Below are positions 1 to 25,443 of a stretch of DNA of 30,409 bases, in pieces. The notes below the pieces were generated by a model. The model had not been told where the DNA came from. It did no database searches and saw nothing but the letters and a program-made list of their open reading frames with translations. Source of the DNA: Macrostomum lignano (lineage: Eukaryota); contig NIVC01004948.1 of NCBI GenBank assembly GCA_002269645.1, forward strand, positions 1 through 30,409, given 5' to 3'. A program made the position numbers and the translations under genes. The stretch's first letter is position 1. Every line of letters starts with the position of its first letter.

Positions 1-1
1 T

Positions 2-266: not shown

Positions 267-282
267 AATATTAAAATAAAAA

Positions 283-725: not shown

Positions 726-850
726 TGAGGTTTAAAACCCCACTTTATCCAGCTTCATAAACCTAATACTACTGATAGGATGTAGAAACAGTTCAACTTT
801 TCTATCAGGGTGGTCACCCTCAAAAATTTTTTTTTCTTTTATAGAAAAAA

Positions 851-3800: not shown

Positions 3801-4680
3801 TGAAACCCTACATTGATAAGAACACCCAGTTTAGGACCAAAGCAACCAACGACTTTGACAAGAACCTCTTTAAGTTGGCCAACAACTCTGTCTATGGCAA
3901 GACTCTTGAGAATGAGAGGAAAAGAACAAACCTGAAACTTGTTACCTCATCAGAGCCTGCTGTTATTCAGGCAAATATGTCAAAGCCAACATTCAAAGAA
4001 CTCCATATCTTTAATAGCTACTTAGGTGTGATCATATTTTACAAAACCAAGGTGACGCTGCGCAAGCCGATCTATACAGGTGTCACTGTTCTCGACGAAT
4101 CAAAACGTCTGATGTACCAGTTCTTCTATGGCATGAAGCAGCAGTACAAGGATAAAATGAAACTCTTGTACACTGACACAGACAGTTTTATTATGGACAT
4201 TCAAACAGAAGACATTTATCAGGACATGCTGCAGCAAAAAGATTTGTTTGACTTGTCTGAGTATGATAATCTTTCAGGACACAGAATGGCGATCAAGTGT
4301 TTGACGCTACTAACAAGAAAGTGATTGGGAAAATGAAGGACGAGATTGCTGGTGACATAATCACTGAATTCATTGGGTTGAGAGCAAAGTCCTATTTTGT
4401 AAAATGTGAGTCGTCAGACCCAATTAAAAAATCAAAGGGAATTCCGAAACGTGTGGTTAGGAAGGAAATTAATGAAGCTGAATACAGAGACGCCTTGAAT
4501 TGCAACAAAAAGACATCACATGAGTTCTCAAAGCTACAATCTAAAAACCATATTATTCACACAATTCAGCAAAAGAAGATTGGACTGTCAGGTGCAGATA
4601 ACAAGAGATTCATTTTTGATGACAACATTAACAGTCTACCGTTCGGGCACTGGAGATTAGGTTTAGGAGATTGGGTTTAG
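851..4680 (+). pseudogene. polB: Protein-primed family B DNA polymerase with endonuclease VII-like insert (12 frame changes as given; may be intact in vivo)
   Basis: Stitched frames give RGSGW..., KACINVKN.DN.C..WA, ExoI VVYADFE, HCHIC...RDHCHFTGKFRGAAHNTCN, ExoII FCHNAKNYD, KGFYPYE, ExoIII YLFTDV, motif A YLDANNLYGWAM, motif B KLANNSVYGK, motif C YTDTDS, GLRAKSY, KSKGI and PFGHW. Confidence 0.92.
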
Positions 4681-4725
4681 GAGGTTGAGGTTGGGTTTAG
4701 GAGGTGGAGGTTAGGTTTAGGTTTA
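4652..4725. repeat. G-rich degenerate tandem repeat, GGAG(A/G)TT(A/G)GGTTTA-type units
   Basis: ggagattaggttta ggagattgggttta ggaggttgaggttgggttta ggaggtggaggttaggttta ggttta, spanning the PolB stop codon. Confidence 0.8.
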
Positions 4726-4753
4726 AGAGAAAGTTTAATAAACCTCATAAAAA

Positions 4754-5155
4754 ATGACGACAAATAACTTTCTTGAAGATTTGGCTAACGAACTGGAAAT
4801 CCCAAACTTTAGAGGAATATTTATGAGGGACACTCTGCCTGATTTTCCTCTAAGAAAGGAATGCGGCATCATGAACTTTGACACCACCGATAAGCCAGGA
4901 TCTCATTGGGTTTGCTGGGTGATTGATCCCGATCGCAAGCACAAGTGTTATTACTTCGATAGCTATGGGACGGCAGTACCAGAAGAGCTAAGAAATTATA
5001 TGAAGGGGAAAAATAATAAAAAAATTTATCGCTCAGACTTTATTCTCCAAGGTCTTAGCAGTGATATTTGCGGTGAGCTGTGCATGACTGTTTTGTATGC
5101 AATGACCAAAACACGAAAGACCTACAAGGAAATTATTCTTGGCTGTGTTTCATAG
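4754..5155 (+). CDS. Adenain-like cysteine (maturation) protease
   Basis: 133 aa with FRGIFMRD.LP, ECGIMNFD...GSHWVC (His), YYFDSYG (Asp) and Q...SDICGELC (Gln/Cys); frame intact. Confidence 0.9.
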   Translation: MTTNNFLEDLANELEIPNFRGIFMRDTLPDFPLRKECGIMNFDTTDKPGSHWVCWVIDPDRKHKCYYFDSYGTAVPEELRNYMKGKNNKKIYRSDFILQGLSSDICGELCMTVLYAMTKTRKTYKEIILGCVS

Positions 5156-5892
5156 GGTTCATTGTGCATTCCTCGTCGTCCTTCTTGCCGAATTTCTTGC
5201 CGAATTTTTCGCCGACTTTCTTTCCACATAATGTTGAAAAACTTTCTCGAGTTCATTTTCAGCTGACTCATGTCATCAGTACCGACCATGTTCAAGTTCA
5301 TTCGAATTGATTGTTCATAAAGATCCTGAATGGTTTTGAACTCATCCTCTGAAATGAACTTATCCTCGATTGCCCTTGAAATGTACCCTATGATTGATGT
5401 GTGCACCCCTTTCTCTTTTACTTGCTTCTCCTGTAGCTGCTTTAGTTTTTTTCGCCTGTTTCGCGCTAATGCTCCAGTAATTGCTGAAATAAGTCCACAT
5501 GCAGCACCCACAGAGCCGAGCGGGATTGCGATTGGGGCTGTGATGACTGGCAACACTGAGACAGCTGCAGCAGATCCAGATAGAACAGACACAGATCCTA
5601 GAATCATATTGCTGTAGTCGAAAAATTTACAGTGGTTGTCATAGCGCTTAATTTTCTTTGTTTGTGGAAAATATTTTTTTCAAGATCATCGCGCATTTTT
5701 TGAATCTCCACCAGTCGAAACTGTTGAGAGTTACAAGTAATGACGGGGTAGAGTTTTTGTTGCTCATATTGGGTGCATTCAGATTCGGTGCCAGGTTTTG
5801 TGTGTTCGAATTCGGTGCCATTGAGTTTGGTGCTGTCGGTATTTTAGGTTCAACGTATTGAGACTGATCGTATAGAGAATTTTTTGGGCCAT
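5122..5892 (-). pseudogene. Polinton membrane protein with two hydrophobic helices (three -1 frameshifts as given)
   Basis: ATG 5892 after an A-run gives MAQK/NSLYDQSQYVEPKIPTAPNS..., then QFRLVEIQKMRDDLEK (from 5723), then KRYDNHCKFFDYSNMILGSVSVLSGSAAAVSVLPVITAPIAIPLGSVGAACGLISAITG...ISRAIEDKFISEDEFKTI. The FRL..I, TM pair and IS.A..D..IS..EF pattern recalls a common Polinton ORF. Confidence 0.6.
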
Positions 5893-5984
5893 TTTTTTCT
5901 CTAGAAAAAATAAAAAAAATTATAAAACTATCCGGTTGAAAGATCTGTTTTCTTTTTGATAATTCCATCTGCACCGCCGGTTGT

Positions 5985-6458
5985 CTAGGCGGCTCTCGTG
6001 ACGCCGGAGGATCGCGAGTCCAGCAGGCAGCGGCTGGGCGGCTGACGTTTGAGAGCGTGCCGGATTACTCCGTCGGGGTCCAGAGCTCCTTCTACTCGAT
6101 CTGTAGACATGACCGGACGAGCAGCAGATTCTGCTTCATCAATAGCAATATCACGAAGATTGAGTGTTCTCTCCAGACGATCAAGCCTCCTTATTATTTT
6201 ACCCCAAGAGCTATACATTCCGTTTAGATAGCTACTGTGTGATACATCCTTTCTCTTTAATGCTTCAAGTCTTTCTTTGATTCGATCATGCAACGATGTT
6301 GACTGAGTCATGAACTCTTCTAAATTATTGACTTTAACTGTGTTGGTTGCGACGTTTTCTTTAATTCTATCATGCAACGCTGTTGACTGGTTCATGAACT
6401 CTTCTAAATTATTTACTTTAGCTGTGTTTGTGAAAACTCCTCCTTCAAGAATACGCAT
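5985..6458 (-). CDS. Hypothetical coiled-coil protein with 28-aa internal duplication
   Basis: 157-aa ORF; TNTAKVNNLEEFMNQSTALHDRIKE and TNTVKVNNLEEFMTQSTSLHDRIKE lie at an 84-bp period (TGAACTCTTC at 6311 and 6395). Confidence 0.6.
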   Translation of the reverse strand: MRILEGGVFTNTAKVNNLEEFMNQSTALHDRIKENVATNTVKVNNLEEFMTQSTSLHDRIKERLEALKRKDVSHSSYLNGMYSSWGKIIRRLDRLERTLNLRDIAIDEAESAARPVMSTDRVEGALDPDGVIRHALKRQPPSRCLLDSRSSGVTRAA

Positions 6459-6465
6459 CCGTCTA

Positions 6466-6801
6466 TCAGGAATTTCCCAGAAGATTAACTGATGATCTCA
6501 AGCCGTTGATTAGCGAGACTATCGAAGTTATTTCTGACCTTAGTTCATTAGTTGCGTTTAACAACGGCACATAAAGCTTATCACTTTCAAACTTCTGCCT
6601 AGCTACTTTAAGCCTGAGATCTTCCATGTTTATTTGCAACTGGTGCATGGAGCGCTCTAGGGCTTTCAGTCTGTTTTTATTCAGTTTGATCTCTGGGATC
6701 TTTTCGTCGCTGTTGATATATCGCCTGTCAAGGATGGATATCTGAGCTGATGTAAGAGCGCTGTTGCCAGAAATGGATTCACCTGCAAAGTTTATCGACA
6801 T
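6466..6801 (-). CDS. Hypothetical coiled-coil protein (possibly one gene with 5985-6458)
   Basis: 111-aa ORF co-oriented between the ATPase and the next ORF; heptad-like Leu/Ile spacing; 7-bp gap to the next ATG. Confidence 0.55.
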   Translation of the reverse strand: MSINFAGESISGNSALTSAQISILDRRYINSDEKIPEIKLNKNRLKALERSMHQLQINMEDLRLKVARQKFESDKLYVPLLNATNELRSEITSIVSLINGLRSSVNLLGNS

Positions 6802-6822
6802 CTTTTAATAGCAAATTTTAAA

Positions 6823-7617
6823 TTACAGTTCTTTTTTCTTGCTGATAATCACAAACTGGTAAGGCTGATTCCACTTGTCATAGCAAAGATTAACGAATTC
6901 CTCTTGTGAAATCTTTCTGCTTGAGTTTTTTGTTGGATTTATGAAATAGGCAGGCGCAATGACCTCATTGTAAAATCTTTTTAGCCTGTCCTGTGGAATG
7001 GTTGGAAACAGGAGAATCAGATTGCAGTTCCCACGAATTGTTTTGTTCGGGAGCTCGAACCAATTCTGTGCAATGTAAATTACATTGCAATTGTTATGTC
7101 GCCCTCTTGTAAAATAGTTTTCTATCTGCTTCTGTGGGCCTGTCATACAATCATCAAAGACGATCAAATGCTTTCTCCCCTTTTCTAGCTCATCTGGTTG
7201 GGGTAGAAGTTTGGTCTTTGGATCAGCCTGTGGATCTCCATAGGTGAACACTTTAATGTTCTGCCATTTTTCATTGTCTTTGAGGTGCTTTGCATATTCA
7301 GCAGCTACAATTTCAGGGTTACTGGGAAGGCTCATTTGGTTATTAAAACATGCAATAATGTCCTCTTTGTGCAGTTTGTTTTGCAATCCAGAAATCAACA
7401 TTTTATACTCATCTTGATACAGTGTGGGAGAGTAGATGTGCAGAGTGTCATAGTCGATAAAGCCAGGTCTAAGAAGCATGTTAAAGACTCTGAATGTTTT
7501 ACCTGAACCTGATGAACCAACAACAATGCATCTGAAGTGACTCGGAATTGACTCGTGATGAGAAAACTTAATCTGATTACGCGTCCAGTGAGGATTGAAG
7601 TCGTTTGAAAAGTCCAT
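6823..7617 (-). CDS. A32/FtsK-HerA-like genome packaging ATPase
   Basis: Walker A GSSGSGKT, Walker B LIVFDD, FTRGRH arginine finger, IYIAQ, TIRGN; intact 264 aa. Confidence 0.92.
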   Translation of the reverse strand: MDFSNDFNPHWTRNQIKFSHHESIPSHFRCIVVGSSGSGKTFRVFNMLLRPGFIDYDTLHIYSPTLYQDEYKMLISGLQNKLHKEDIIACFNNQMSLPSNPEIVAAEYAKHLKDNEKWQNIKVFTYGDPQADPKTKLLPQPDELEKGRKHLIVFDDCMTGPQKQIENYFTRGRHNNCNVIYIAQNWFELPNKTIRGNCNLILLFPTIPQDRLKRFYNEVIAPAYFINPTKNSSRKISQEEFVNLCYDKWNQPYQFVIISKKKEL

Positions 7618-7656
7618 TTTTTCTATGATGAAAAAAAATTAAATAATAAATAATTT

Positions 7657-7801
7657 AGATGTGTCATTTCGGGACTTAATGTGTCATTTTGGGACTTAGA
7701 TGTGTCATTTTGGTACTTAATTGTGTCATTTCGGGACTTAGATGTGTCATTTCGGGACTTAGATGTGTCATTTTGGGACTTAGATGTGTCATTTCGGGAC
7801 T
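7657..7801. repeat. Seven tandem copies of a 21-bp unit AGATGTGTCATTT(C/T)GGGACTT
   Basis: Read directly; copy 2 is 20 bp, others differ at 0-2 positions; intergenic, upstream of the ATPase. Confidence 0.95.
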
Positions 7802-7827
7802 AGTCTTGTACCCTCGGAAAGTACCCT

Positions 7828-8217
7828 TTAGTCAAATTTGAAACCACTTCCTTTTTTAATGCTAGCCCTCATCTTCTCATAGACTGCAGGGTCCACACTG
7901 TCTGGATTTGGGGCCAATGGAGCCAGCGGGGCCAGTGGAGGCTGAATCTCTTGTTTAGGTGTTACAGTATCCTTTATCTTTTTGGCTGCTGTGGCTACAC
8001 TGCCAGCCGCTTCGGCAACGTTCTTGATGTTCTCTTTGTTCTCTCCAATGACCTTAAAAATCTTGGCCCCCTGAGCGATCAAATCGGCAAGACCGTTCCC
8101 AGAGCGTTCTTTTCTTGGATAGTGGCCTGCAGGGAAAAGTCCAGATCCGCGTTTAATAAGATTAAGTTCCTCTTTGTCATAGTATTTGTCCACGTCTTTC
8201 TCAAAAATAATCGGCAT
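7828..8217 (-). CDS. Small putative virion core/membrane-lytic protein with GxG motifs
   Basis: Likely start MPIIFEKD (ATG 8217 after an A-run); KRGSGLF, RSGNGLADLIAQGAKIFKVI (amphipathic) and terminal KKGSGFKFD. Confidence 0.6.
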   Translation of the reverse strand: MPIIFEKDVDKYYDKEELNLIKRGSGLFPAGHYPRKERSGNGLADLIAQGAKIFKVIGENKENIKNVAEAAGSVATAAKKIKDTVTPKQEIQPPLAPLAPLAPNPDSVDPAVYEKMRASIKKGSGFKFD

Positions 8218-8233
8218 TTTTACTTGAAATAAA

Positions 8234-9448
8234 TTATTTTTTGTTGAACCGCGAAAGCAGAAGCTCTCTTGCTCTTTTGTCAATATACTTCTTTTCCATC
8301 ATTTTGTCCAGGATGTTGACAAATTCTTTTCTATTTTCATCTTTCATTCCGGTCTTTGCTGCTCCTAGAAGAACCGCTACTCGCTTGTAGATTTCAGAAA
8401 TTCCTTTTCCTGTTGAGGGCGGTTGGTCTTGGGGTTGTGGAGTTGGTTGGGCTTGTAGCTGCTGGGGAGGTGATGCAAAAGACTGCTCACTTTCAGAGAT
8501 GGAACTGTCATGTGGTGCCTGTCTTTGTTGAGGTGTGAAAACTCTTTGCTTGATTCTGTTCATTCGATCTGGAGAGTGTTGTTCTAAGTGTTGCCAGGCA
8601 TCTGGGTGATCATTTTTATATTTAGCTACTTGAGTCGGATCTGCATTTTCCAGTTGCCTGAGTACTTCTGTGAAATGTTGCTGCTGCTGTGGTTGTGGTT
8701 GTTGCTGTTGTTGTTCTAGATATTTTATGACTTCCGCCTGATCTGGCAAATCGAACCATTGTTTAAAGTGCTTGTACTTTTTGAATTTAGTCAGGTTGAC
8801 ACCGCTATCGTACATGTGTTTCAGAACTTCTGGGACCTTTAGTATTTCTATATCTCTAACAAGAGAAAAAGTCACTAGATTTCTGTAGTTCTTTAGCTGC
8901 TTCTCGGAGATTTTCTCTTGGTTCTTGGTCATAAAAGTCAGTAAGGTGTCTGTGAAAGGAATTTTCATAGTTTCTGAGCCTTTGACAACAGAAATATTTT
9001 CCTTATTTATGTCGATATAATATTCCACTGGTTCATTATAAATGTTTTTTCTCCACATACTTATTCCAAATACATATTTCCCATCATGTTCGACACGCTC
9101 TACTGGTCCAAAAATATTATCTGTCACTTTTAGTTGCTGTTGTGGTTGTGATTGTTGTTGTGATTGTTGTGGTTGCGGTTGTGTCTGTGGTTGCGGCTGT
9201 ATCTGTGGTGCTTCTGGAATTTTGCCCAAAACCTTTTGCACTTGGGTTTCCTGTATGTCGTCGATAGTTTCTTTGACCTGATCAATATTTTTCTTAGCTT
9301 CTCCATACCCGGGTTTATGAAACTCTGTGGCTGCTTGGACAAACTCATTGTAGGATTGTTGCTCCTTATTTATTAGCCCGGTAACTCGTTTCTCTGCTTG
9401 TGCCAGCTTCTCCAATTCAGATATTCGCTGTGTACTTTTTCGCTTCAT
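8234..9448 (-). CDS. Gln/Pro-rich Polinton protein with conserved C-terminal helical domain (putative cement/core)
   Basis: 404-aa intact ORF with QP low-complexity tracts; C-terminal GKGISEIYKRVAVLLGAAKTG...EFVNILDKMMEKKYI recalls a conserved Polinton C-terminal motif. Confidence 0.6.
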   Translation of the reverse strand: MKRKSTQRISELEKLAQAEKRVTGLINKEQQSYNEFVQAATEFHKPGYGEAKKNIDQVKETIDDIQETQVQKVLGKIPEAPQIQPQPQTQPQPQQSQQQSQPQQQLKVTDNIFGPVERVEHDGKYVFGISMWRKNIYNEPVEYYIDINKENISVVKGSETMKIPFTDTLLTFMTKNQEKISEKQLKNYRNLVTFSLVRDIEILKVPEVLKHMYDSGVNLTKFKKYKHFKQWFDLPDQAEVIKYLEQQQQQPQPQQQQHFTEVLRQLENADPTQVAKYKNDHPDAWQHLEQHSPDRMNRIKQRVFTPQQRQAPHDSSISESEQSFASPPQQLQAQPTPQPQDQPPSTGKGISEIYKRVAVLLGAAKTGMKDENRKEFVNILDKMMEKKYIDKRARELLLSRFNKK

Positions 9449-9478
9449 TTCTTATTTTATTTTATTTTTAGTTAAAAA

Positions 9479-10765
9479 ATGAACGACCCACTGACACCAG
9501 TTTTCTACAAAATTAACAAGCCTATTTTGAGTGATGATAGCACAATCAAAGCGACTCAGGTAAGAGTTCCCAGTCAGGAAAATCAGAATGAAACTAATCT
9601 TGGTCCTGGCCAAACACTGACATTCACATACAATGGATGTTCGTCTTTGGTTAGTGTGCACAGTCTTAAGAGCGGCTTCCATATGACATTTCAATTCAAG
9701 ACAAAAGGTGGTGCGGATGCGGCTCGTGCTAACGTTGACAAGCATGATGCGGATGTGGCTCTGATCAGTAACTTTTGGGCGTACATGTTCAAGGAGTTTA
9801 GTGTATCGAATGGGAGCACTGAGTTGGAGCGAATCGCCAACTTTGGAATTGTCTATGACGCTCATTGTTTGATCGAGAATCCTGATTTTATTCAATTGGG
9901 AAGTGGTGCGGGTTTTATCGCAGATGAAAAAGAAGGAGACATCAATGACAGTGGCTATAAAAAGAGGAAGAAGAGATACAACTATGCATTGCAAGGTGCT
10001 GATGATGCTGCTAAGAACCCGCTGTATCGGTCTGTTGATGTATTTGTACCATTGAGATTCATGAGTGGATTCTGTAATACATTTAATCGACTGACTAGTA
10101 ACTTTAGCTACACATTTAGACTGACTAGAGATGATCGCAGTAGAGTGTTGTGGACTGGGGCGGACCACACTGGGATGGCTGTGAAGCTAACCGGAATCGA
10201 GCTGTATTTGGAAGTCATTGAGCCAAAGACTGCACTAAAAGCAGACTATCTTAAGGCAATAGAGAAGGACATTGATGTTGCATACACGGCCTACATGTGT
10301 CGAGATGAGCGAAACGAAACTAGAACAAACATCTGCATCAAAGAGGGATCATGCAGCAATCCAAGGTATGTCATTATTAATATGAGAAACCCAAATAGCA
10401 TTATACGCTACATGCATGGAGACGTGCGGTCCATTCAGCATGAAATCAGTGATAATCTTTACCCTGCACTGCCACAAAATGGAGATTTCAGTCAGAACAA
10501 GATTAGCAAATTTTACAGCGAGTTAGTCGACTTGGCTGTGAAAGAGAACAATGGAATTGCTATCACTGCTCTTCAATATGGAACTCTATATCCGATGTTT
10601 GGCGCTGATGTGTCTGCCAGACAAATGCCTACTGATAACAGCCCTGTGAATATCGTGACTAACATTGAAAGGACTGCCGCAACACCCGTGGACCTGTACA
10701 TTGTCTATGCATTTGAGAGGAAGGTGAAGCTTAACATGATCAACAATTCATCCAGTAAAGTTTAA
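9479..10765 (+). CDS. mcp: Major capsid protein (double jelly-roll, hexon-like)
   Basis: 428 aa, beta-rich; ILSDDSTIK near the N-terminus, VFVPLRFMSGFC, YPMFGADVS; directly upstream of the minor capsid gene in a Polinton context. Confidence 0.78.
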   Translation: MNDPLTPVFYKINKPILSDDSTIKATQVRVPSQENQNETNLGPGQTLTFTYNGCSSLVSVHSLKSGFHMTFQFKTKGGADAARANVDKHDADVALISNFWAYMFKEFSVSNGSTELERIANFGIVYDAHCLIENPDFIQLGSGAGFIADEKEGDINDSGYKKRKKRYNYALQGADDAAKNPLYRSVDVFVPLRFMSGFCNTFNRLTSNFSYTFRLTRDDRSRVLWTGADHTGMAVKLTGIELYLEVIEPKTALKADYLKAIEKDIDVAYTAYMCRDERNETRTNICIKEGSCSNPRYVIINMRNPNSIIRYMHGDVRSIQHEISDNLYPALPQNGDFSQNKISKFYSELVDLAVKENNGIAITALQYGTLYPMFGADVSARQMPTDNSPVNIVTNIERTAATPVDLYIVYAFERKVKLNMINNSSSKV

Positions 10766-10788
10766 ATATTTTTTTGTGGGTGAAAAAA

Positions 10789-11652
10789 ATGGAAGCTATA
10801 GCCGAAAGACTAAACAACATTGTTTCACACTCTAAGGAGAGCATTCCTATTACAATAACCGGGCGAATTAATGACTCAAACGGGATGTTTGTTGAAAAAT
10901 TAGAGCAGGCGATTCGCCTGGATCCTGGCGCTAATTACCATGTCTATCTTAACGACTTCACTGGTTGGTCAAACGTTCCCAATGTGATGGCAGCAAATAA
11001 TAAGTTTTATTACAAATGGAAAGGTGCAGCAGCAGACTCTGTGGTATTCCATGTGAGCACGCAAAGTGTGGATACCTACAATAACTTTCTAGAAAATGTC
11101 TTTACTAAGAGAGGCCATTTTGAGACACCTGATGCGAGTAAGCCAGAGAAGAAACTGTTCCCTGTCAAACTAACCTATGATCTCACTGTAATGAGAGTGG
11201 TCATGCAAGTTCACAAAGATGCGGAGGTTGAGTTTAAAGATGACACTTGGTATAGGGAACTGGGATTCGAGAAGAAAGTTTATAAGGCAGAATCCGCGGC
11301 GCGGACCGCCACTCAAGCATCGGGGACCGTTAAAATGGCCCGGGAAAATGTAAGCGGTTTGTTCTTAGCACCCAATATTGCAGACATTGTAAAGGGTTTG
11401 AATATTCTAATCAGAAGCAATCTCAGTCTTGATTGGGTATTTAAGGGAAAGCGAACGAATATTTTGTACAACATCTCCAACTCTGTTGCTGGAGGACAGA
11501 TGGTGGTAGAGAAACCAAATCCAGTGAAAAGAGTTGTATTGAGTAATAAGGAGATTCACGAGATTGTGCTACAGTTTGAGACTGAAGATGGGATGGGCGT
11601 TGATTTTAATGGGGAAGAGTTTGTATTGACGTTGATCATTGAGAGAATGTGA
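10789..11652 (+). CDS. Minor capsid protein (penton-like single jelly-roll)
   Basis: YHVYLNDFTGWSNVPNV..NNKFY, LGFE, and C-terminal EKPNPV...EIHEIVLQFETEDG.GVDFNGEEFVLTLII; ATG 10789 after an A-run. Confidence 0.8.
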   Translation: MEAIAERLNNIVSHSKESIPITITGRINDSNGMFVEKLEQAIRLDPGANYHVYLNDFTGWSNVPNVMAANNKFYYKWKGAAADSVVFHVSTQSVDTYNNFLENVFTKRGHFETPDASKPEKKLFPVKLTYDLTVMRVVMQVHKDAEVEFKDDTWYRELGFEKKVYKAESAARTATQASGTVKMARENVSGLFLAPNIADIVKGLNILIRSNLSLDWVFKGKRTNILYNISNSVAGGQMVVEKPNPVKRVVLSNKEIHEIVLQFETEDGMGVDFNGEEFVLTLIIERM

Positions 11653-12067: not shown

Positions 12068-12289
12068 TGCACATGATTTTTACGAACGTTCGTAAAAATC
12101 ATGTAACCATTGAGAGCCGCTTTATGCTGCACATGATTTTTACGAAAGTTCGTAAAAATCATGTAACCATTGAGAGCCGCTTTATGCTGCACATGATTTT
12201 TACGAAAGTTCGTAAAAATCATGTAACCACTGAGAGCCGCTTTATGCTGCACATGATTTTTACGAATGTTCGTGAAAATCATGTAACCA
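12068..12289. repeat. Four tandem 60-bp units, each with a 34-bp palindrome ACATGATTTTTACGAAC|GTTCGTAAAAATCATGT
   Basis: Palindromes start at 12071 (perfect), 12131, 12191 (1 mismatch each) and 12251 (2 mismatches); linkers nearly identical. Confidence 0.97.
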
Positions 12290-12527
12290 GTGGGAATCGA
12301 ACCATGCGGGGCAGACTGAGACCGGTTTCGGGCTTGTTTGCCCTCGTCAGTCAGTCATAGCCACACGAGGTCGGCTCCACCTCTAGCCAGCTGAGTGGAA
12401 CTGCTATTTATACGCCCTTGCACCAAGTCCTTGCCTTGCACATGGCGACATTTTCTAGTCCACCATGTGAGGAATTCGCGCCATGTTCAAATAGCTTTAC
12501 TATCAGTAAGCTATCGCTTACAAATAC

Positions 12528-12590
12528 GAGCCGCTTTATGCTGCACATGATTTTTACGAACGTTCGTCTAATTAATGTAACCAATAAGAG
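12528..12590. repeat. Solo degenerate fifth copy of the 60-bp palindromic unit
   Basis: gagccgctttatgctgcacatgatttttacgaacgttcgtctaattaatgtaacca; left arm perfect, right arm decayed. Confidence 0.9.
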
Positions 12591-12777
12591 CCACTTTCGT
12601 GCGCTTTAAAAGATATATTTGCTTCAACCAATAGATACAGCTTAAAGGACTACTGTAGACGAAAGAAACTTGCCAGTACAAATAAGAGTATATTACGAGT
12701 ATTTTAACACACAGAATACGCTGAAAAATGTGAAGTAAAAGCCATCACTGTTTAACGTAGAGAATAATCATTCATAG

Positions 12778-13641
12778 TCAGTACTTCGTCTTCATCAGTT
12801 CAAGACCTCCGTTGTGGTCGCTTCGTCTTCTTCTATCTATGCCTAAAAAATTGTTTATTCGACTTGTATTGTTTGTTTGTACAAACTTTCTTTCAGAATT
12901 TGTTACAAAAAAAAATGTTATGTATTTACTTTCTTCATACCAACACCTGACATCCTTCTCATGTTGTTCATCCAGGGAAATACCCTCGATTTGCATCTTC
13001 AATAAGTCCGCAAAGCGTTCATCGATTTTCGCCTTCTCTTCAATCGCCGATTTGTAGCGAAGCAGGGTTCCCATTGTGTAACTTGAAAATATTAGACCTG
13101 GGTACATGATACAGAGAGAGTAAAATTTGTCGTAGTCTCCCACTGTTCGCTTGCTGATGTTGAAAGTGGTGGCGAGCTCTTCCACATTCATTTTGTGCTT
13201 GTAGACCAAAACTTGAATTAAGCGCCCCTGCTCAAACTGCATCATGGCCTTCGCAGTTGACAGGTTCTCGATAGAATAGGTCAGCTTCTTAAACCTCGCT
13301 TCCAAGTCTACCTTTTTCGTTCCATTCAAATTCATGGCGACCAAGTTGAGACCTTCGGAAATTGCACCCAGAGACAACATTACACCACGACTCTCATTCT
13401 CTTCCAGCTTCGCGTATATCCTCGCAATAACTCTCTCTCGCTCGCTCTCTTCCTTTTTCTTGGGAAGCGCCCTCTTCTTATCCGGAATACCTTCAAGCTT
13501 TTCCAAGCTCTCCTGAAACCTTACCAACTCTTCTTCTTTCCAGCTGCTCAGTCTGCTTCCCATTGCCGACCTTTCTTTAGATGACAGCGTGACCGCCAGT
13601 TCAGCAATCGTTGCAATTCTTGTCTCTTTTGACATGGCCAT
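12778..13641 (-). CDS. Orphan helical protein with helix-turn-helix-like motif
   Basis: Likely start MAMSKETR (ATG 13641; frame is open to 13821). Charged helical N-half, then QFEQGRLIQVLVYKHKMNVEELATTFNISKRTVGDYDKFY (HTH-like). The AT-rich 3' part (12843-12935) may be an intron. Confidence 0.65.
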   Translation of the reverse strand: MAMSKETRIATIAELAVTLSSKERSAMGSRLSSWKEEELVRFQESLEKLEGIPDKKRALPKKKEESERERVIARIYAKLEENESRGVMLSLGAISEGLNLVAMNLNGTKKVDLEARFKKLTYSIENLSTAKAMMQFEQGRLIQVLVYKHKMNVEELATTFNISKRTVGDYDKFYSLCIMYPGLIFSSYTMGTLLRYKSAIEEKAKIDERFADLLKMQIEGISLDEQHEKDVRCWYEESKYITFFFVTNSERKFVQTNNTSRINNFLGIDRRRRSDHNGGLELMKTKY

Positions 13642-13714
13642 GATAAAAAGTATTCCTTTTATTGAAGAAAGTTTCGGTTTGACTTGCGGGGCGAGGTCCG
13701 GTGTGAATCGGTTG

Positions 13715-13722
13715 TTTTTATA
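13715..13722 (-). promoter_or_regulatory. TATA box TATAAAAA upstream of the HTH gene
   Basis: Plus strand TTTTTATA at 13715-13722; about 75 bp upstream of ATG 13641 and 58 bp downstream of the HSE. Confidence 0.55.
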
Positions 13723-13780
13723 CCTTTGGTGGTATACGGTAGTACTCGGAAATCCCTGAATATTATCTATCGGATATCCA

Positions 13781-13808
13781 GAATATTCTAGAATATTCCC
13801 TTCTAGAA
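13781..13808. promoter_or_regulatory. Heat-shock element: GAAtaTTCtaGAAtaTTC plus TTCtaGAA
   Basis: Four perfect alternating nGAAn units (an 18-bp palindrome, 13781-13798) followed by a two-unit TTCtaGAA (13801-13808). Confidence 0.6.
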
Positions 13809-13825
13809 GGGAAACCCGCATGGCA

Positions 13826-13944
13826 TGGGTTTTATTTTTAGATCTTACGTCTGCACTCTACAGGGTACAACCTTGTAATTGCCCATGCCATGTGGGTTTT
13901 ATTTTTAGATCTTGCGTCTGCACTCTACAGGGTACAACCTTGTA
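13826..13944. repeat. Two 52-bp direct repeats at 67-bp period
   Basis: tgggttttatttttagatctt(a/g)cgtctgcactctacagggtacaaccttgta at 13826-13877 and 13893-13944, one mismatch. Confidence 0.93.
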
Positions 13945-13960
13945 CGAGCGTAGTTGCCAA

Positions 13961-14200
13961 CTACAACTGTCTTATGACTTCAGCAAAGTTATAGTAGCTG
14001 TCGTAATCTTTTACATAGGTTACTCCATACTTATGAAACCAGTGTCTTTGGAGAGCTAGATTAATATTAGGGACATTGATATGAACGTCGGGCCAATATT
14101 TTTTCATGTATTCGCTGCATTCAAGTTTGCATCGGTACTTGGATTTGTACAATGGATGAGGCTGAGTATAATAAGAACCTGGAGAGACAACTGGAAACAT
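13961..14200 (-). CDS. Possible small Tyr-rich ORF or terminal exon
   Basis: 79-aa frame MFPVVSPGSYYTQPHPLY...; a tttccAG acceptor-like site lies just inside its 5' end; no recognisable family. Confidence 0.25.
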   Translation of the reverse strand: MFPVVSPGSYYTQPHPLYKSKYRCKLECSEYMKKYWPDVHINVPNINLALQRHWFHKYGVTYVKDYDSYYNFAEVIRQL

Positions 14201-14355
14201 TTTTAGAGAAAATTTAGATTTTTTCAAAGGGTAAGGACCCTGCGCTGATGCTTTAAAGTCTTAGGGATCTGGTCTCGCGTTGCAAATTGAATGTGGGGAG
14301 AAGAATGCAGATTATTTTCTGATTGTCTCGAAGATGCTATGGGTGGATTTGGAGC

Positions 14356-14544
14356 TGTTATGCTCAGAGCATAAACCCTCAGAGCATAACAGTAGGACAC
14401 CTGTTATGCTCTGATTCTGTCAGAGATAATATGGATGGATTTAATGGGATTATGGAGGACGTTTTGTGAGCGAGTGCGACCCCCCTTTTTTTCTGATTCT
14501 GTCAGGGATAATATGGATGGATTTAATGGGATTATGGAGGACGT
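14356..14544. repeat. Cluster of inverted and direct repeats at the left edge of element 2
   Basis: 14-bp-arm hairpin TCAGAGCATAACAG/CTGTTATGCTCTGA (14379-14414, 8-nt loop), a further TTATGCTC-a-GAGCATAA hairpin, and 53-bp direct repeats at 14410-14462 and 14492-14544 (one mismatch). Confidence 0.9.
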
Positions 14545-14655
14545 GAAAAATTTTGTCCCAGAAGCCCCCTCATGCCTTCTACTTTTTTTAATTCCATACT
14601 GTATTTTAGTCCTAAAAATCATCAAAATTCTTGCATTATTTGTTTAATATTAACC

Positions 14656-15424
14656 ATGATAAAAGCACGTTTTTTAAAGAAAAAAAAATTGTTATTCCAG
14701 CCAAGAGCTCGCTGCCTGGTTTGTCGAAAGACCTTCCGCAATGTGGCTGCGCTGCATGCTCACTCGCATGGAGAATGCTTTGCGCCAGATCGACTGTTGG
14801 AGGGGCCATTCGAGGAGCTTCAGGCGCACCCACCAGACGGTTGGTCTGTTCACCTGGAAGAAAGTGCGCATCAGGGGCGAGCCAACTTTCTGCAGTTTGT
14901 TCCTAATTCCGCTGAATCTCCATCGCAAACATCCGCCACCACCGACGACCTTCTACCTGCCGACAAGCTGAACCAGCTGCGCGCCCCAATCTATTGGCTT
15001 TTCAATATGACTTTACAAAAAGGACTGATGTTGAGAACATGTCTGCATGTCAAGGTGAAGCTGTTTCGGATGCTGGCGGATTTGCGGCAACACCCCGATC
15101 TCTCAACAGGCGCTTTAAATTCACCAGCAACTGAAATAATCTCTGCATATTTCAACAGTCACATGGTTACAATTTCACTGGATAAAGAGGGCACCGGTAC
15201 TGGCGAACTGTCTGAGGAGAGTTTCAACGACTGGTTTATGCGTGCAATCACCGAAGTGACAAGCAAAATTGACAGCTTCCAGAAACGTGGCAGTGGTTGG
15301 AAGTATGACAGCATTGAACAGCTTGACCTGATGCTATGCCCCTATAGGAAGTCTCGTTCTCGGCCAAGCTACAACCCGGGCAGTAGGAATTCCACAGCGG
15401 CAGAGCAACAGCTGGGCGGTGGTA

Positions 15425-15459
<35 letters not shown>

Positions 15460-18400
15460 GCCAGAACATTTAAAGTCCCGTTGTCGGTTGGATGCAAGAG
15501 AGGAGCCGTAATATTTTTGAAGCCAAACAATAATCGGCAGCCTAACTGCTTCAAGTATGCAATCGTAGCAAGCATCTTTTATGCCCAAGTGAAGCGTCCT
15601 CATTTGAAGAGCAGCTATACAGAACATTTGCGAGAATTGGATTTTGGAACTAAATTACAAGTCGGATCAGCGAGACATGCCAAATGCTCATATATTAAAT
15701 TTTTGAACAAAAATCCAGGGTTAAGTTTGCGTGTATTCGTTTGGGATTACGAAGCAAAGACTGCCGTGCATTACTTTTCGCGCCACTGTTCCCCGGAGAC
15801 AGCCCGCTTCATGGCAAACTGTTTGTTCATCCCACCATATGGCAAATTCAAGCTGGGCCACTACATGCCTGTTCGTAATTTGAACTCACTTCTAAGCTGC
15901 CGAGGCAAACGACGGCGTGTCTGCCCAACTTGCCTGGCTCCGTTTTCGGAAAAAATATCATGGGACTTCATTCTGAACGAGCACCAATGCATCGGAGGGT
16001 GCGAGAGCCAGTCCTCGCTCCGCTGGATGTCCGAGCCGCTGCCACAAATACGGGAGGTGCGCAGGCCGCCAATTGAGAAGATGCCTCTGCCGGAGAATGC
16101 TAGTCTTGAGTTTACCGAACATGCTGCAAGGCTGCCGGCGCTGTACGTAGTTTATGCCGACATGGAATGCCTATGTGCACCGCCGGACGCCAGCGCTCCA
16201 CATGTGGGAGCCTCTCAAAAGATTCGCGAGATCCACAAACCGCTTTGCATCGGTTATCGGGTGGTGGCCTGTCCCGGAGTTGAAAGCCGGCTGCCTTCAC
16301 TATATGGCGAAAGGTCCGCCTGTTCGGTTATCTATTCGCGGCCCAACGGTGGAGATGATTGCATTGGGCTGTTTTTGATCAAGCTCCGCCAGCTAGCAAG
16401 CGAGATCTACCGACACGCCAAGGATGAAACATATGTTCCTTTGCTTAAAAAATATCTTCATCTGACGGACCGTGTCGAGAAGCGGCGCCACAAGCATTGT
16501 CAGCTATGTAATCGCGTTTTTGAGCTTGATGAACGCCAAGTCCTGGATCACGATCATCTTACTGGCCTGCCTAGGGGAGTTTTGTGTGTCAGCTGCAATC
16601 GCAAATTGAGCTTGAATCGCCACCGGCTGTTGGTCTATTTTCACAACCTGTCGGCATATGATGGCAAGTTTATTGTTCGCCAAGTTTACGAAACCTTTTC
16701 CGGTGAAGAAGTTAAACTTTATGTTTTGCCTGAAAATCGCGAGCGATTCAAAACGTTCTCTATCAAGTTCAAGCTGCCTGCTGCTGATGGGCAGCACCAC
16801 GTTTGGTTTGAAATCTGCTTCAAGGACACTTTTGCGTATTTACCAACTAGCCTAGCAAGTCTAGCTGAACGCCTGCTCCCTTCTCAGCTGGTGCACACAA
16901 GCAAACTATTGGAGCAATACCCGAGACTACGACCGGAGACGTTGCAGCAGAAGGGAGTTTTTCCCTATTCGTTCCTTGATCGAATGGACAAATTGGACAG
17001 CGTAAAATCTCTGCCAGCAAAGGAGAGGTTTTTCAATAGACTAACAATGCAGCATTGCTCTGACGCCGACTACGCTCGAGCCAAGGCCAGCTGGGAGGAA
17101 TTCGGCTGCCACACTCTGCGTGACTACACTACTGCCTACCTGCGATTGGATGTGCTTTTGCTCTGCGACGTGTTTGAAAATTTCAGAAATAATGCAATCA
17201 AAGAGTATCAAATTGATCCCGCTCATTTTCTTGGCTCTCCAATGTACAGCCTGGCGGCGTGCTTGCTTCAACTTGCAGAGCCAATTCAACTCTTCACTGA
17301 TACAGCCATGTATGCTGAAATTGAGAGCTCTGTGCGCGGCGGTTTCAGCTTTGGGACACGTCACGTAACCACAGCAAATAACTCGTTGGTTTCGCTCATT
17401 CGTCAAGATTTGGACAGGGACGAGGGCAAATTTGCGAGCCTGAGGGCAAATGCACCAGAAAACACCTTTTTGGTTTACTTGGATGCAAACTCGCTCTATT
17501 CTAGTTGCATGGTACAACCTCTACCATACAAGAACTTTCGTTGGCTTTCTGCTCGAGATGTGAATCGCATACCATGCGATAACACCCCCGGCGCAGGCTA
17601 TTACCTCGAAAATCCGCAAGTGAAGAGTCAAATGCTAGACTGGCTGACGAAGTTTTGTTCTGAGGAGCGAGGAGCTTATTTCACAGTCGATCTGCATTAT
17701 CCCGAGTTTCTACACGATAGCACTGCTGACCTCCCACTGGCGATTGGGCACGAGATTGTGAGAGAAGATCGGCTGACGGATCAAATGCGGCAAGATTGGA
17801 CAGCACTTCAACGACAACTGAACCCCGAGCGATATGCCTCTGCCAGCTGTTACCAAGACGTGAAGGCATTCAAGAGCCCTGCGCGCAAGCTCATCGGTTC
17901 TGTCGAGCACAAGCGCGAATATGTGTTGCACCACCGTGCATTGCGACTTTACCTCGAGTTGGGGATGCGAGTCACAAGGGTCTATCGCGTCATCTGTTTC
18001 ACCGAGAAGCCAATATTACGCTCTTACATTGAGCGCAACATTAGCCGACGAATAGAAGCCAAGACGGAATTTGAACGTGATCTGTTCAAGCTACTCAACA
18101 ATGCTTTGTTTGGCAAGTTTCTGCAACGTGTTCGTGACCGATTGTGCTTCAAGATGTGCACCGACGCTGCAAAGCTGGAGTCCTATGTCAGCATGGAAAG
18201 CTTCCTAGATGTTATCATTTACAACGAGAATTTGGCGGGAGTTAGTCTATCTCCTCGTCAAGTTTTGCTTAACAAGCCAATTATCATTGGCGCGTCAATT
18301 CTGGACATTGCCAAAACTATGGTTTACAATTTTTATTACAACCATGTTCAGGCTCATCATTCGCTTTCATGTGCACGCGTTCTGGCAGGCGACACCGACA

Positions 18401-18936
18401 GTCTGATGATGGCACTGGTGATGCGCAGACCTGGTGACACGCCCTATAATTCATTGTTCAAGGACCTGATCGCTCAAGGACTACTTGATACCAGCAACTA
18501 TCCGCCGGATCATGCCCTTTATTCTACCCAACACAAGGGTCGGCTGCTTGCATGGAAAGACGAATTTGCTGGAGCGGTTCCAATCGAGTTGGTATTTTTA
18601 CGACCAAAGAACTACTCTTTTCTCTACGTTACCGATACGATTCGGCAACTCTCTCGATGCAAAGGCGTGAGCAAGCAAGTGGCTCGCACGTTCAAGCACA
18701 CGGCCTACCTCTCGGTCTTGGAGAAGAGAAGAGTGATGTATGCAAGCTTCGCTCGAATTGCTTCTAAGAAGAAAGTTGTTTTTCTCATGGAACAGAAGAA
18801 GCTCGCGCTCGGATTTTTTGATACAAAGCGCGCTTGGACAACCCTCCTTGCTTCTCAACCATTCGGACATTGGCGGCTGCGAGCAGCATGCGAAACGCAG
18901 GCAAGAATTACTTTCTTGATACTGTTTAGCATCTAG
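14656..18936 (+). CDS. polB: Protein-primed family B DNA polymerase with N-terminal zinc finger and endonuclease VII domain
   Basis: Uninterrupted ORF (frame opens at 14572; ATG 14656 preferred). CLVCRKTF.....LHAH zinc finger, RGSGW, ExoI VVYADME, DHDH..G..RG.LC..CN, ExoII FHNLSAYD, KGVFPY, ExoIII YLRLDV, YLDANSLY, KLLNNALFGK, GDTDS, LRPKNY, CKGV, PFGHW. Confidence 0.96.
15427..15456 (+). repeat. (GGC)10 microsatellite encoding a poly-Gly linker in PolB
   Basis: Ten perfect GGC codons after GGC GGT GGT AGC. Confidence 0.95.
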
Positions 18937-18987
18937 ATGATACAGTAGCATCTTTAGCTTAATATTTTTTCGTTTTTTTAATTTCAG
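18901..18987 (+). other. Candidate GC-AG intron at the 3' end of polB (terminal exon 18988-19035)
   Basis: CAG|gcaaga donor; long T tract then tttcag|G acceptor; phase-0 splice gives ...ACETQ-ATIDSEKEDYSMDEN*. Confidence 0.45.
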
Positions 18988-19265
18988 GCAACAATCGATT
19001 CGGAAAAGGAGGACTATTCGATGGATGAAAATTGACTTTTGCTTTGTACATTAACACCATATATGCCAGGCATCGTGTGTAGACTAGTCATCATTTTAGC
19101 ATGGTGTCCTATCTCTTGAGGTTCACTCATTTTCGTTGGCTGACACAGCGCTCTAGAATAAATGTGTATTGAATGACTAACGAACGTGATTGGTTTTTCG
19201 CTCCTTCTTTTGCAAGAGTATATAAGCCCAGATGTTGAGACTTTAGTTTAACTTTTGTCCGAAAA

Positions 19266-20135
19266 ATGCAGTCGTCCTCTTCGCCTAGCCAACCGAGTTT
19301 AAGAAGTAGGAAAAGCCAATTATCGAAACTGTTCATTTCGCCATATACACAAACGAGTGGTTTGTGCAATTTCCCAGTCCCGCCACCAACTCCCACTCCC
19401 GAGAATGCAAACAAAAAATTTATTTTCAATGTTTCAGCCAGTACAATGCAGCGCCAGCAGCAAGAATCTCTAAATCCAAGTGACACTAGCAGCTGTAAAG
19501 ACGCAGCGCCAGTTCCGCTACGCCTAAATCCCGATTGGTGTCAACAATACCTCGCAGGCTCACCACCGATCGAGAAAAATCTAATTGTCCGCCTTCTCAG
19601 CAATCATGCTGCGGTTCCGGCCAGACAGACAGAGGGCTCTATCGGGTATGATCTGACTGCAGCCGAGACCAAGACCGTCCCTGCGCAGGGACGAGCGATT
19701 TTTGATATTGGGATTTCAGTCCGAGTACCGGCTGGCACCTATGGAAGAATCGCTGGGCGCTCTGGTCTGTCAGCGTTTCACGGAATCACGGTGGGCGGCG
19801 GAGTAATTGACCCAGACTACTGCGGACGAATTACGGTGATTCTCTTCAACCACGGCATACGAGACTATCATGTTCGCATCGGCGAAAGGATTGCGCAGCT
19901 GGTTCTGGAGAAGGCGGAAATCGCTCCGGTCAAGGTAGAGAACTACACTATCGCTCGCGGGAAGAAGCGTGAAGCGCTGGACAACCAGCGTCAGTTGTCA
20001 GCGTCAGCATCGTCAGTTGCGGAGACCGCCAAGGTTGATGAAGAAGAGAAGATGAAGAATCTGGCGGACGCAATCGTTCAACAAGAAGCTTGCAAGCAGC
20101 GGGGCGATTCAGGCTTTGGCAGCACGGGGATGTAA
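19266..20135 (+). CDS. dut: Trimeric-type dUTPase with N-terminal extension and lengthened C-terminal arm
   Basis: All five motifs present: GYDL, IAGRSG, GVIDPDYCG, ERIAQL, RGDSGFGSTG. Confidence 0.95.
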   Translation: MQSSSSPSQPSLRSRKSQLSKLFISPYTQTSGLCNFPVPPPTPTPENANKKFIFNVSASTMQRQQQESLNPSDTSSCKDAAPVPLRLNPDWCQQYLAGSPPIEKNLIVRLLSNHAAVPARQTEGSIGYDLTAAETKTVPAQGRAIFDIGISVRVPAGTYGRIAGRSGLSAFHGITVGGGVIDPDYCGRITVILFNHGIRDYHVRIGERIAQLVLEKAEIAPVKVENYTIARGKKREALDNQRQLSASASSVAETAKVDEEEKMKNLADAIVQQEACKQRGDSGFGSTGM

Positions 20136-20201
20136 AGATTGCAGGTTTAAATTGCGCGCAAGAGCGGTAGTATCTGGAAATTACTGCAGTTCATTCTTTT
20201 T

Positions 20202-20416
20202 TTCAAGAATAAACAATTCTGCATGCATATAAAGACTATAAGTTATGCTCCAAAATTGCAAGGAACAAATATATCTGTATCTGAATCCTTAACGCATATA
20301 AGCTATCTTTTATTCAAGAATAAACAATTCTGCATGCATATAAAGACTATAAGTTATGCTCCAAAATTGCAAGGAACAAATATATCTGTATCTGAATCCT
20401 TAACGCATATAAGCTA
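20202..20416. repeat. Identical 104-bp direct repeats at 111-bp period
   Basis: Copies at 20202-20305 and 20313-20416 read identical; intergenic, ending 51 bp before the PLA2 ATG. Confidence 0.95.
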
Positions 20417-20467
20417 AACTAAATTATTTGCTATTGGTTTTCAAGTCTTTACTATTTAAGCAACAAA

Positions 20468-20961
20468 ATGTACGCATCAAAACGCAGAAAAGGTGTCTGC
20501 AAGCAAAAGAGGAAATCTGTCCCGAATCGGAAATCGCGCTCTAGCAAACGTGTTCAGAGAGGATCTGGGATTGTAAACTGGTTAATCAATCACCTACCAT
20601 TTGAGGTCCACCTCCCTGGTTACAATTTTTGTGGACCGTAAGTGAGCCAAACTTTTTCATGATTTAGTTTGACACTGTTCTAACTAGGAAGTATTAAATT
20701 CGCTCTTAATTAAGGGGCACGCGGTTGCGAAAACGGCTTGCGGAAGGACAGCGAGGGAAAAACCGGTTGGATGATCTTTGCCTACTACATGATGTTGCAT
20801 ACGAAAAGAGCTCGGACACAAACTCTCGTCTGGAAGCTGATCGGTTGTTAGAAGCCGGAGCTAGAGAGATTATAAGCGATCCGAATACTGGGTGGGGAGA
20901 ACGCCTTGCTTCAAAATTCGTGGCTAAGGTGATGCACGCTAAGCAGCGATTGGCAGCCTGA
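20468..20961 (+). CDS. Parvovirus VP1-type phospholipase A2 domain protein, two exons (20468-20637, 20715-20961), 138 aa
   Basis: Spliced product MYASKRRK...QRGSGIVNWLINHLPFEVHLPGYNFCGP|GTRLRKRLAEGQRGKNRLDDLCLLHDVAY... restores the Ca-binding GPG loop and the catalytic HD. Confidence 0.88.
20638..20714 (+). other. 77-nt GT-AG spliceosomal intron in the PLA2 gene
   Basis: Perfect GTAAGT donor, TTCTAAC branch-like site at 20678-20684, ends TAATTAAG; removal restores frame and motif, retention gives an immediate TAA. Confidence 0.85.
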
Positions 20962-20967
20962 ACACAA

Positions 20968-21675
20968 ATGGAAACTTTCAATCTGCAGTTGGCACACGAT
21001 TCCTCAATCATCTTGGCCGGACCATCAAACTCTGGCAAAACTGAATGGGCGCTGCGTTTGCTGCGCGAACGAAATTTGTTATTTAAGCAAGCGCCAACGC
21101 GTCTCGTGTGGTGTCATGGCACGGACCTGAGTCCTGGTGAACAGCACCGCATTCGTTCAAGCTGGGAGGAGGGCGGGAGCGGGCAGCATAATTTGATTCG
21201 AGGATTTCCGCTCGAGCTTATCTCTCAACTTCGCCCACACGATTTGCTGGTTGTCGATGATCTCCAGAGTGAAATGGCCAAGTCCCCCGAATTTACAGCA
21301 ATTTTTACAAAATATGCCCACCACACACCACTAACTTGTCTCTATTTATGTCAGAATCTCTTTCATCGTTCTGATGCTGAAGCGCGCTCGCGAAGCCTCT
21401 CTGCTAGCTACATCTGCCTGACCCGAAATATTCGCGATCGAACGGTTGTTCAAAGCCTAGGGAAGCAAATGTTTCCAAAGAGGAGCAACTTTCTAGTTCG
21501 TGTCTATGAAAACGCAACTGACAATAGGCCCTATTCATACCTGTTTATTGATCTGCGACAAGAAACTCCCGACTTTTTAAGGCTTCGTACTGGTATTTTC
21601 CCGGGTGACAAACAGCTTGCGTACACCTCTGGTAAAAGCAACTCTGTTTCACTTGATTTTATAAGCAATCCATAG
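20968..21675 (+). CDS. A32/FtsK-HerA-like genome packaging ATPase
   Basis: Walker A GPSNSGKT, Walker B LLVVDD, FTKYAHH, YLCQNLF, RSLSASY, RPYSYLFIDL. Confidence 0.92.
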   Translation: METFNLQLAHDSSIILAGPSNSGKTEWALRLLRERNLLFKQAPTRLVWCHGTDLSPGEQHRIRSSWEEGGSGQHNLIRGFPLELISQLRPHDLLVVDDLQSEMAKSPEFTAIFTKYAHHTPLTCLYLCQNLFHRSDAEARSRSLSASYICLTRNIRDRTVVQSLGKQMFPKRSNFLVRVYENATDNRPYSYLFIDLRQETPDFLRLRTGIFPGDKQLAYTSGKSNSVSLDFISNP

Positions 21676-21708
21676 ATTGCACTTTGCTCCTTTGTAGAAA
21701 TTTTGAAA

Positions 21709-22698
21709 ATGAGTTTTTATGTGTTTTTGCCTTCGAATGACAAGAGTTATGCAGATAATTCACCCAGCGAGTTTCGAGTCCGGCTAAAGGATCCACTGAA
21801 TGTTGGAACGCGCTATGAAGTAGCACTGGTTGAGCTAATCTGCGGAGGGTTTCCTGCTTCGGCTGCAAAGGACTCTTCGTTAGATAAAAAGGAAATTGTC
21901 TACTATCAAAGAGACGTGCAAACGTATTTTTCTTCAACAGCACCTCGATTTGTGAAGTTGTGGTCCCAAGCAAACTTGGAGGCATATCTTTTGTGGAGGC
22001 AAGCGGAGGCGGGCTCGGGAGCAAAAATCACATATCAGTGGTTCCTGCGAAACGGTGGTAGCCGATCGGTTCATGTGGAAATTCCAATGACGTTTCTCAG
22101 TACATTTGCCCTAGACGAGTGGGTTGTGGTTCGAGCGGGGATAGGCAATGAAGAAGGTGAATGGAGTGAGGCTTCTCTACGGACTTTGGAAGAGGTTTCA
22201 GCGAAGATGGATAGATTGAACGATAAGTATACTATGATTTTTAATTTTGTTCTGGACCCATATCATGCTGTGAAATTTTTGGGCGATGGAGAACGCATGA
22301 AATCTCTACAAAGTGGTTCAGTGGACGACGCTCTGAAAAAAAATGTTTGGAAGCTTGTGCACCCGTGGACATTTACCATACAATATTTGCCTGGTGAGCC
22401 GTCCGGTGCTGGGGACGACAATAGCAAGCAGTATATGCATTGCTACACTGACATCATCGACTATCAGCCCGTTGGAAGCACATCTGTTCCACTGTTGCGC
22501 GTCGTGGATTTGCAGCGGAAGGGACACGAAGTAACGCATGAACATAGTTCCTTGACAAATCCTTACTATGTTGGAGTGAATCGTCAGGGCATCAGCGAGA
22601 TTTCAATTCGACTGACTGATCAGCGTGGCAAAGGAATACAATTTCAACCGGGCTCGCATACTGTGGCGGTGCTCCATTTTCGTCCTAGAATTGACTAG
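21709..22698 (+). CDS. Minor capsid protein (penton-like)
   Basis: N-terminal MSFYVFLPSN...SEFRVRL..PL....YEVALVE and C-terminal YTDII..Q.VG...VPLLRVV...P.YV.V...I..I.I.L.DQ.G..I.F, typical of Maverick minor capsids. Confidence 0.85.
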   Translation: MSFYVFLPSNDKSYADNSPSEFRVRLKDPLNVGTRYEVALVELICGGFPASAAKDSSLDKKEIVYYQRDVQTYFSSTAPRFVKLWSQANLEAYLLWRQAEAGSGAKITYQWFLRNGGSRSVHVEIPMTFLSTFALDEWVVVRAGIGNEEGEWSEASLRTLEEVSAKMDRLNDKYTMIFNFVLDPYHAVKFLGDGERMKSLQSGSVDDALKKNVWKLVHPWTFTIQYLPGEPSGAGDDNSKQYMHCYTDIIDYQPVGSTSVPLLRVVDLQRKGHEVTHEHSSLTNPYYVGVNRQGISEISIRLTDQRGKGIQFQPGSHTVAVLHFRPRID

Positions 22699-22755
22699 GT
22701 GACTAATTTATAAGCAAACTTTGGGGTGTTGAGTATGATTTGACCAATAATTTAA

Positions 22756-23945: not shown

Positions 23946-24029
23946 GTATGCAATGCTGGTGGTTTGGTTAATCTATATGCAAACTTGTTTTTATTCGAGA
24001 TAAATATAAAACATTTGCGTGTGTATGTT

Positions 24030-25404: not shown

Positions 25405-25443
25405 ATGTAAGCATGAACTTGCTAAATGTATGCCTGTATTCAA

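Follow-up and report, generated by a model that had tools for sequence, protein, structure and literature searches.

A spliced gene for a predicted helix-turn-helix protein behind a heat-shock-type promoter, probably an accessory gene of a Polinton-like element in Macrostomum lignano

The window analysed here is a stretch of 30,409 nucleotides of Macrostomum lignano DNA (contig NIVC01004948.1, assembly GCA_002269645.1, numbered on the forward strand). It contains two Polinton-like elements and, between them, a minus-strand gene for a predicted helix-turn-helix (HTH) protein preceded by a perfect heat shock element (HSE) and a TATA box. A preliminary description of this DNA had proposed that heat shock factor (HSF) induces this gene and that its product switches a neighbouring endogenous virus under stress. 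The promoter and the gene consist of the following features, in the order of transcription.

13801..13808, minus strand: distal two-unit element TTCtaGAA, in 5-bp phase with the four-unit HSE
13781..13798, minus strand: four-unit HSE GAAtaTTCtaGAAtaTTC, read directly, equal to two overlapping canonical three-unit HSEs
13715..13722, minus strand: TATA box TATAAAAA, with the inferred start following after 31-33 bp
13689..13691, minus strand: inferred transcription start region, from the 5' ends of three transcript-based gene models
12930..13641, minus strand: coding exon 1, 237 codons, for the helical N-terminal part and the HTH domain
12994..13257, minus strand: predicted tri-helical HTH (residues 129-179) inside a ParB/KorB-like DNA-binding domain (residues 130-216)
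12843..12929, minus strand: intron, 87-nt GT-AG, in frame and stop-free
12778..12842, minus strand: last coding exon, with a basic tail in this copy

Direct reading of the minus strand confirms the described order of four-unit HSE, 58 bp, TATA box and ATG, the ATG lying at 13641, 3' of the TATA box, with the frame open to the stop at 12778. Promoters of the hsp type carry at least three contiguous inverted nGAAn units; here all four units are perfect, and both parts of the HSE region together form six in-phase pentamers whose polarity is flipped once. A transcript starting upstream of 13821 would turn the HSE into coding sequence. Three 5'-partial M. lignano gene models (P0002, P0006 and P0008) all begin at codon 13689, and the annotation is built on transcript assemblies (PMC5730564), so the transcript probably starts at 13689-13691, the 5' ends of such models not being exact. 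Because the three models start 31-33 bp after the TATA box, the HSE is assigned to the promoter and not to the coding sequence. Relative to the model 5' ends the HSE lies at about -90 to -109 and the TATA box at -31 to -33. This indirect evidence supports the claimed hsp-type layout, in which the HSE would be promoter-proximal and untranscribed and the TATA box about 30 bp before the start.

The same description had judged a chance HSE unlikely, and the controls bear this out. The four-unit HSE at 13781-13798 is the only one in the window, none appeared in 100 dinucleotide shuffles of it, and Markov simulations of orders 1-4 gave any four-unit HSE in 8, 4, 0 and 3 of 200 runs. The strict TATA motif TATAWAWR occurs at only 7 sites on the window's minus strand. 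For comparison, 80 metagenomic loci related to the capsid of the right element (467,867 bases, many loci without ends) hold no four-unit HSE and eight three-unit HSEs, none with a TATA box following. We consider it very unlikely that the HSE is inert or accidental and that the TATA box is used without heat control. The chance rate of about 0-4% per 30-kb window when many windows are scanned would favour such a reading, as would two of six HSE-bearing long terminal repeat (LTR) families of M. lignano for which an HSE alone was insufficient (PMC12801592). These two silent families have a single three-unit HSE each, which argues against the parallel, and at the locus itself a perfect four-unit and a phased two-unit element are spaced as expected relative to a TATA box and to a mapped 5' end.

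At 37 °C the other four of the six LTR families are induced about 250-fold, and mutation of the HSE abolished the heat response of the one LTR promoter tested (PMC12801592). The hsp20 gene of this species responds from 30-33 °C (PMC6371448). We think it quite likely that HSF would likewise induce the HTH gene on heat.

The product had been described as an HTH-like protein of about 287 amino acids. The HTH is upheld by the predicted fold and the length is not: the frame crosses the in-frame intron, and the spliced product from the ATG at 13641 has 258 amino acids. In the alignment of model P0006 to the window, 274 of 274 residues match, and a single 29-codon gap corresponds to the 87-nt intron. 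In contigs of runs X5 and X9, which are only guessed to be RNA, exon 1 is linked across the intron to the last exon, with 60 extra letters between. This addition fits sister copies that have a middle exon and end in an acidic tail. Such copies are P0008-P0010, with 14-15 acidic residues in the last 30 (two counted); the basic tail is found in this copy and in P0002.

The gene, first taken for an orphan, turns out to belong to a multicopy family with several subfamilies in M. lignano and further relatives. Its closest proteins are M. lignano hypothetical proteins, and an exhaustive search returned 10 representatives at E <= 0.001, including five from M. lignano and a weak one from Pterocystis (E 1.5e-4). 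One subfamily (52% identity) comprises five full-length M. lignano proteins, 99% alike, on different contigs. IMG/VR, JGI metagenomes, phages and the 80 Polinton loci yielded no member. The gene defines a new HTH protein family, and at least five lineages within one species would be more in keeping with mobile cargo than with a single-copy host gene.

Pfam matches for an HTH stay under the cut-off; the predicted fold contains a confident HTH within a helical DNA-binding domain of the ParB/KorB family, and the N-terminal 100 residues are predicted to be all helices. The longest fold matches are the DNA-binding domains of ParB, KorB, SopB, Noc and VirB. None of 11 family members has a ParB match in Pfam, the N-terminal CTP-binding domain included, and a CTPase domain was not found. 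We judge DNA binding by the gene product to be very likely.

Candidate binding sites and several repeats flank the gene.

12068..12289, no strand: array with a 60-bp repeat unit; every unit contains a palindrome of 34 bp with core GAAnnTTC (four palindromes)
12290..12527, minus strand: insert splitting the palindrome array, with a hammerhead motif at 12296-12368
12528..12597, no strand: fifth array unit, partly diverged, directly downstream of the 3' region of the HTH gene
13826..13944, no strand: direct repeats of 52 bp (two copies), on the upstream side of the HSE
13963..14583, no strand: very high-copy interspersed repeat, unclassified, between the gene and the right element

The five palindromes have a 60-bp period, and the array, split by the 238-bp insert, sits between the convergent ends of a minor capsid candidate and the HTH gene. 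The GAAnnTTC core of each palindrome is half of an HSE and could also recruit HSF. All close matches to the palindrome and its half-sites lie in the array; none occurs upstream of viral genes in the window, and a simple operator is therefore disfavoured. The array may instead have an origin, partition or enhancer role, and the true operator could be a motif other than the 34-bp palindrome.

Tandem palindromes distant from promoters are the layout of parS. The protein and its five phased palindromes could thus form a partition or tethering module that holds or organises the element DNA in the manner of ParB-parS or KorB-OB, heat control being secondary. The longest fold matches agree with this reading, which we nevertheless rate as decidedly unlikely: Pfam finds no ParB CTPase domain, the N-terminal part is all-helical in the model, and a partition protein has no reason to need an HSE.

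Immediately left of the array, at 11921-12067, paired GAATTC sites occur in a direct repeat of 34-58 bp. A TATA box lies at 12412 within the insert that splits the array, and in three runs this insert is flanked by different sequence. Its hammerhead motif (12296-12368, minus strand) is of the minimal type I (Rfam HH9, E 1.1e-5; the 32.7 bits fall short of the gathering score, 52). The motif has a full catalytic core, and its helix III is very short and palindromic, like that of metazoan retrozymes (PMC7229834).

Four runs were compared across 12300-15400. In one X15 contig 12554 is followed, after a filler of five letters, by 13900, so that the gene and the HSE are missing from it. Another copy of the high-copy repeat is joined to 12605 in the same run. 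The gene and its HSE might be an independent small mobile cassette, or belong to a third element, and have inserted near the end of the left element; a variant without them exists, duplicated sequence (array unit, 52-bp repeat) lies on both sides, and the region holds two other insertions. On the other hand the variant breaks a palindrome mid-way and carries the five-letter filler, so it looks like a deletion from a longer form, and neither a transposase nor inverted ends surround the gene and HSE. A separate cassette is, in our view, quite unlikely.

The high-copy repeat reaches a depth of 55,000-294,000 in X15, compared with 170-300 on the gene, and shows loose ends at 13963 and 14583. It also contains internal repeats of 72-82 bp, and the ATG at 14572, which opens a 1454-residue polymerase frame, falls within it.

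The flanking elements occupy most of the window.

1..11652, no strand: left Polinton-like core with a pX-like fragment, broken pPolB, adenain protease, A32 ATPase, double jelly-roll capsid and minor capsid candidate
14584..28327, plus strand: right Polinton/Maverick with pPolB, dUTPase, ATPase, pX-like gene, integrase-chromo, major capsid and protease

Both contain the Polinton hallmarks (protein-primed PolB, A32-type ATPase, adenain protease and double jelly-roll capsid), several of the Pfam hits being below the cut-off. The right capsid has 78 homologues at E <= 1e-20 and is unrelated to the left capsid by BLASTP (E 0.41). In the left element, which runs off the window, the polymerase (949-4680) is split into several frames by stops and shifts, and no integrase lies within the window, where the element is cut off. 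The pX-like and other genes at 1-900 are also broken, and a 21-bp unit is repeated seven times at 7655-7801, between the ATPase and the next gene. The right element looks largely intact; its candidate integrase combines an rve match (E 2.4e-4) with a chromodomain. An AGTAG motif makes CTACTACT at 28320-28327 a candidate right terminus, at 28327. Polintons are bounded by terminal inverted repeats and a 6-bp target duplication; the window has no such repeat pair, and the matching left end of the right element is absent from it. The dUTPase gene at 19266-20135 is followed by a 111-bp tandem duplication at 20195-20416.

The gene had been placed between two viruses, which is true of this window. 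In X1 and X15, contigs of the right-element polymerase continue into other DNA: upstream of 14584 they carry some 3.5 kb that differs from the window. Because of this difference, and because the repeat at 13963-14583 is very high-copy, the join between the gene and the right element is probably rare, secondary or an assembly product. The 12554-13900 joint ties both flanks of the gene to the array region of the left element, to which the gene likely belongs. Its place is probably near the end of that Polinton, which would carry it as an accessory gene.

Accessory genes of this kind are known from nematode Mavericks, where intron-bearing cargo (wasp proteases, krma kinases) lies in a variable region near the element end (10.1101/2022.07.12.499685). 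By analogy, the gene and its HSE promoter might ride as a heat-inducible passenger, acting on host DNA or having no viral role. A spliced, lineage-restricted gene that is dispensable in at least one variant (the 12554-13900 joint), and viral promoters without an operator-like palindrome, are what such cargo would show. Its fold resembles HTH regulators of phages and plasmids and not a known host family, and the palindrome array directly adjoins it. We regard a passenger as unlikely.

As the best reading we tentatively propose, at a little short of even chances, an HSF-induced, element-borne DNA-binding regulator of its own element. The promoter motifs, splicing, family and array behind this reading are observed, the fold is predicted, and the rest we infer. 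Under heat stress HSF would bind the four-unit HSE, and the TATA-driven, spliced transcript of the HTH gene would rise. The ParB/KorB-like protein would then bind the neighbouring 34-bp palindromes and, early and stress-boosted, may regulate its own element. Since most family copies have an acidic tail, it would more likely act as an activator; this is the weakest step.

The stronger proposal of a Polinton-encoded stress switch, in which the induced regulator loads on the five-palindrome array and starts the gene programme of the element, we hold to be doubtful. Parts of the preliminary proposal are supported: the promoter layout, a start downstream of the HSE, the predicted HTH fold, and a host whose HSE-bearing mobile elements are heat-induced and need their HSEs. 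Several observations weigh against a direct prophage-like switch. No copy of the palindrome lies at a viral promoter of the window, where a prophage-type switch would have its operators. The polymerase of the adjacent left element is broken, and the right element, which looks intact, is probably linked to the gene only secondarily. Published heat data (2 h, 37 °C) point the same way. The supplement of PMC12801592 lists 1,120 heat-induced rows by cluster ids. A cluster labelled pPolB and endonuclease VII (row 940, supplement 2) is up about 7-fold at very low counts (log2 fold change 2.8, baseMean 4.4, adjusted P 0.010), and another pPolB cluster, by Pfam label, is down (log2 fold change -1.6). 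Searches by Pfam-label terms in the accessible 2-h table returned no rows for A32 ATPase, adenovirus protease or dUTPase, and the terms Maverick and Polinton had no match in the supplements of the paper. At 2 h these data, with low counts and filtered repeat models, do not point to Polinton genes being induced as a coordinated programme.

Two features elsewhere in the window stand apart from this locus. At its right end, in host-like DNA, two three-unit HSEs lie 40 bp apart (30335-30387), possibly marking another heat-responsive promoter beyond the window. A small element at 29154-30037 resembles a miniature inverted-repeat transposable element, with inverted arms of 76-111 bp around short open reading frames.

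At this one locus a promoter is accompanied by a putative regulator and a putative array of binding sites. A coral study could not compare Polinton expression between stressed and unstressed samples (PMC11131425). We found no earlier report of a Polinton with an HSE promoter in the open-access literature, and the accessible portions of the adintovirus (PMC8502044) and coral papers contain no such HSE-driven HTH gene. If the stress switch were true, it would parallel prophage induction in a eukaryote, and for animal Polintons it would be the first trigger of activity to be named; even without it, a DNA-virus-like element would join the list of mobile elements that recruit HSF. M. lignano is a transgenic-capable model worm; RNA-seq data at 20 °C and 37 °C are public (E-MTAB-14939, from PMC12801592), and reporter vectors with HSEs exist.

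Compared with known systems, the proteins with ParB/KorB/SopB/VirB/Noc domains and the HTH proteins of the DeoR/SorC type share only 9-20% identity with the product of this gene, which is a spliced eukaryotic gene with no CTPase domain detected. In prophage induction a host stress factor acts on a small viral regulator gene. The HSF-dependent immediate-early control of herpesviruses (PMC12047821; 10.1101/2024.09.23.614483) is alike in placing a host stress factor on such a gene. Unlike in these systems, no copy of the palindrome lies at the viral promoters in the window, and a replication programme started by the regulator is conjectural. Nematode Maverick cargo is similar as an intron-bearing accessory gene near an element end and differs in being enzymatic, heat control not being mentioned in the accessible portion of that report (10.1101/2022.07.12.499685). 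ONSEN of Arabidopsis and Helitron1_CE of C. elegans likewise recruit host HSF through canonical HSEs; they belong to other element classes and, as far as the accessible portion describes them, have no element-encoded HTH regulator under the HSE (PMC12801592). Closest in host are the LTRs of M. lignano itself (Mlig-id115 of Mag, id36 and id55 of CsRN1, id38 of Gmr1/Osvaldo), mobile elements of the same species with canonical HSEs upstream of a TATA promoter (PMC12801592); the HSE motif at issue here was not found among those LTR sequences. Unlike them, this is a DNA virus-like Polinton, and its HSE would drive a separate small regulator gene and not the genomic transcript.
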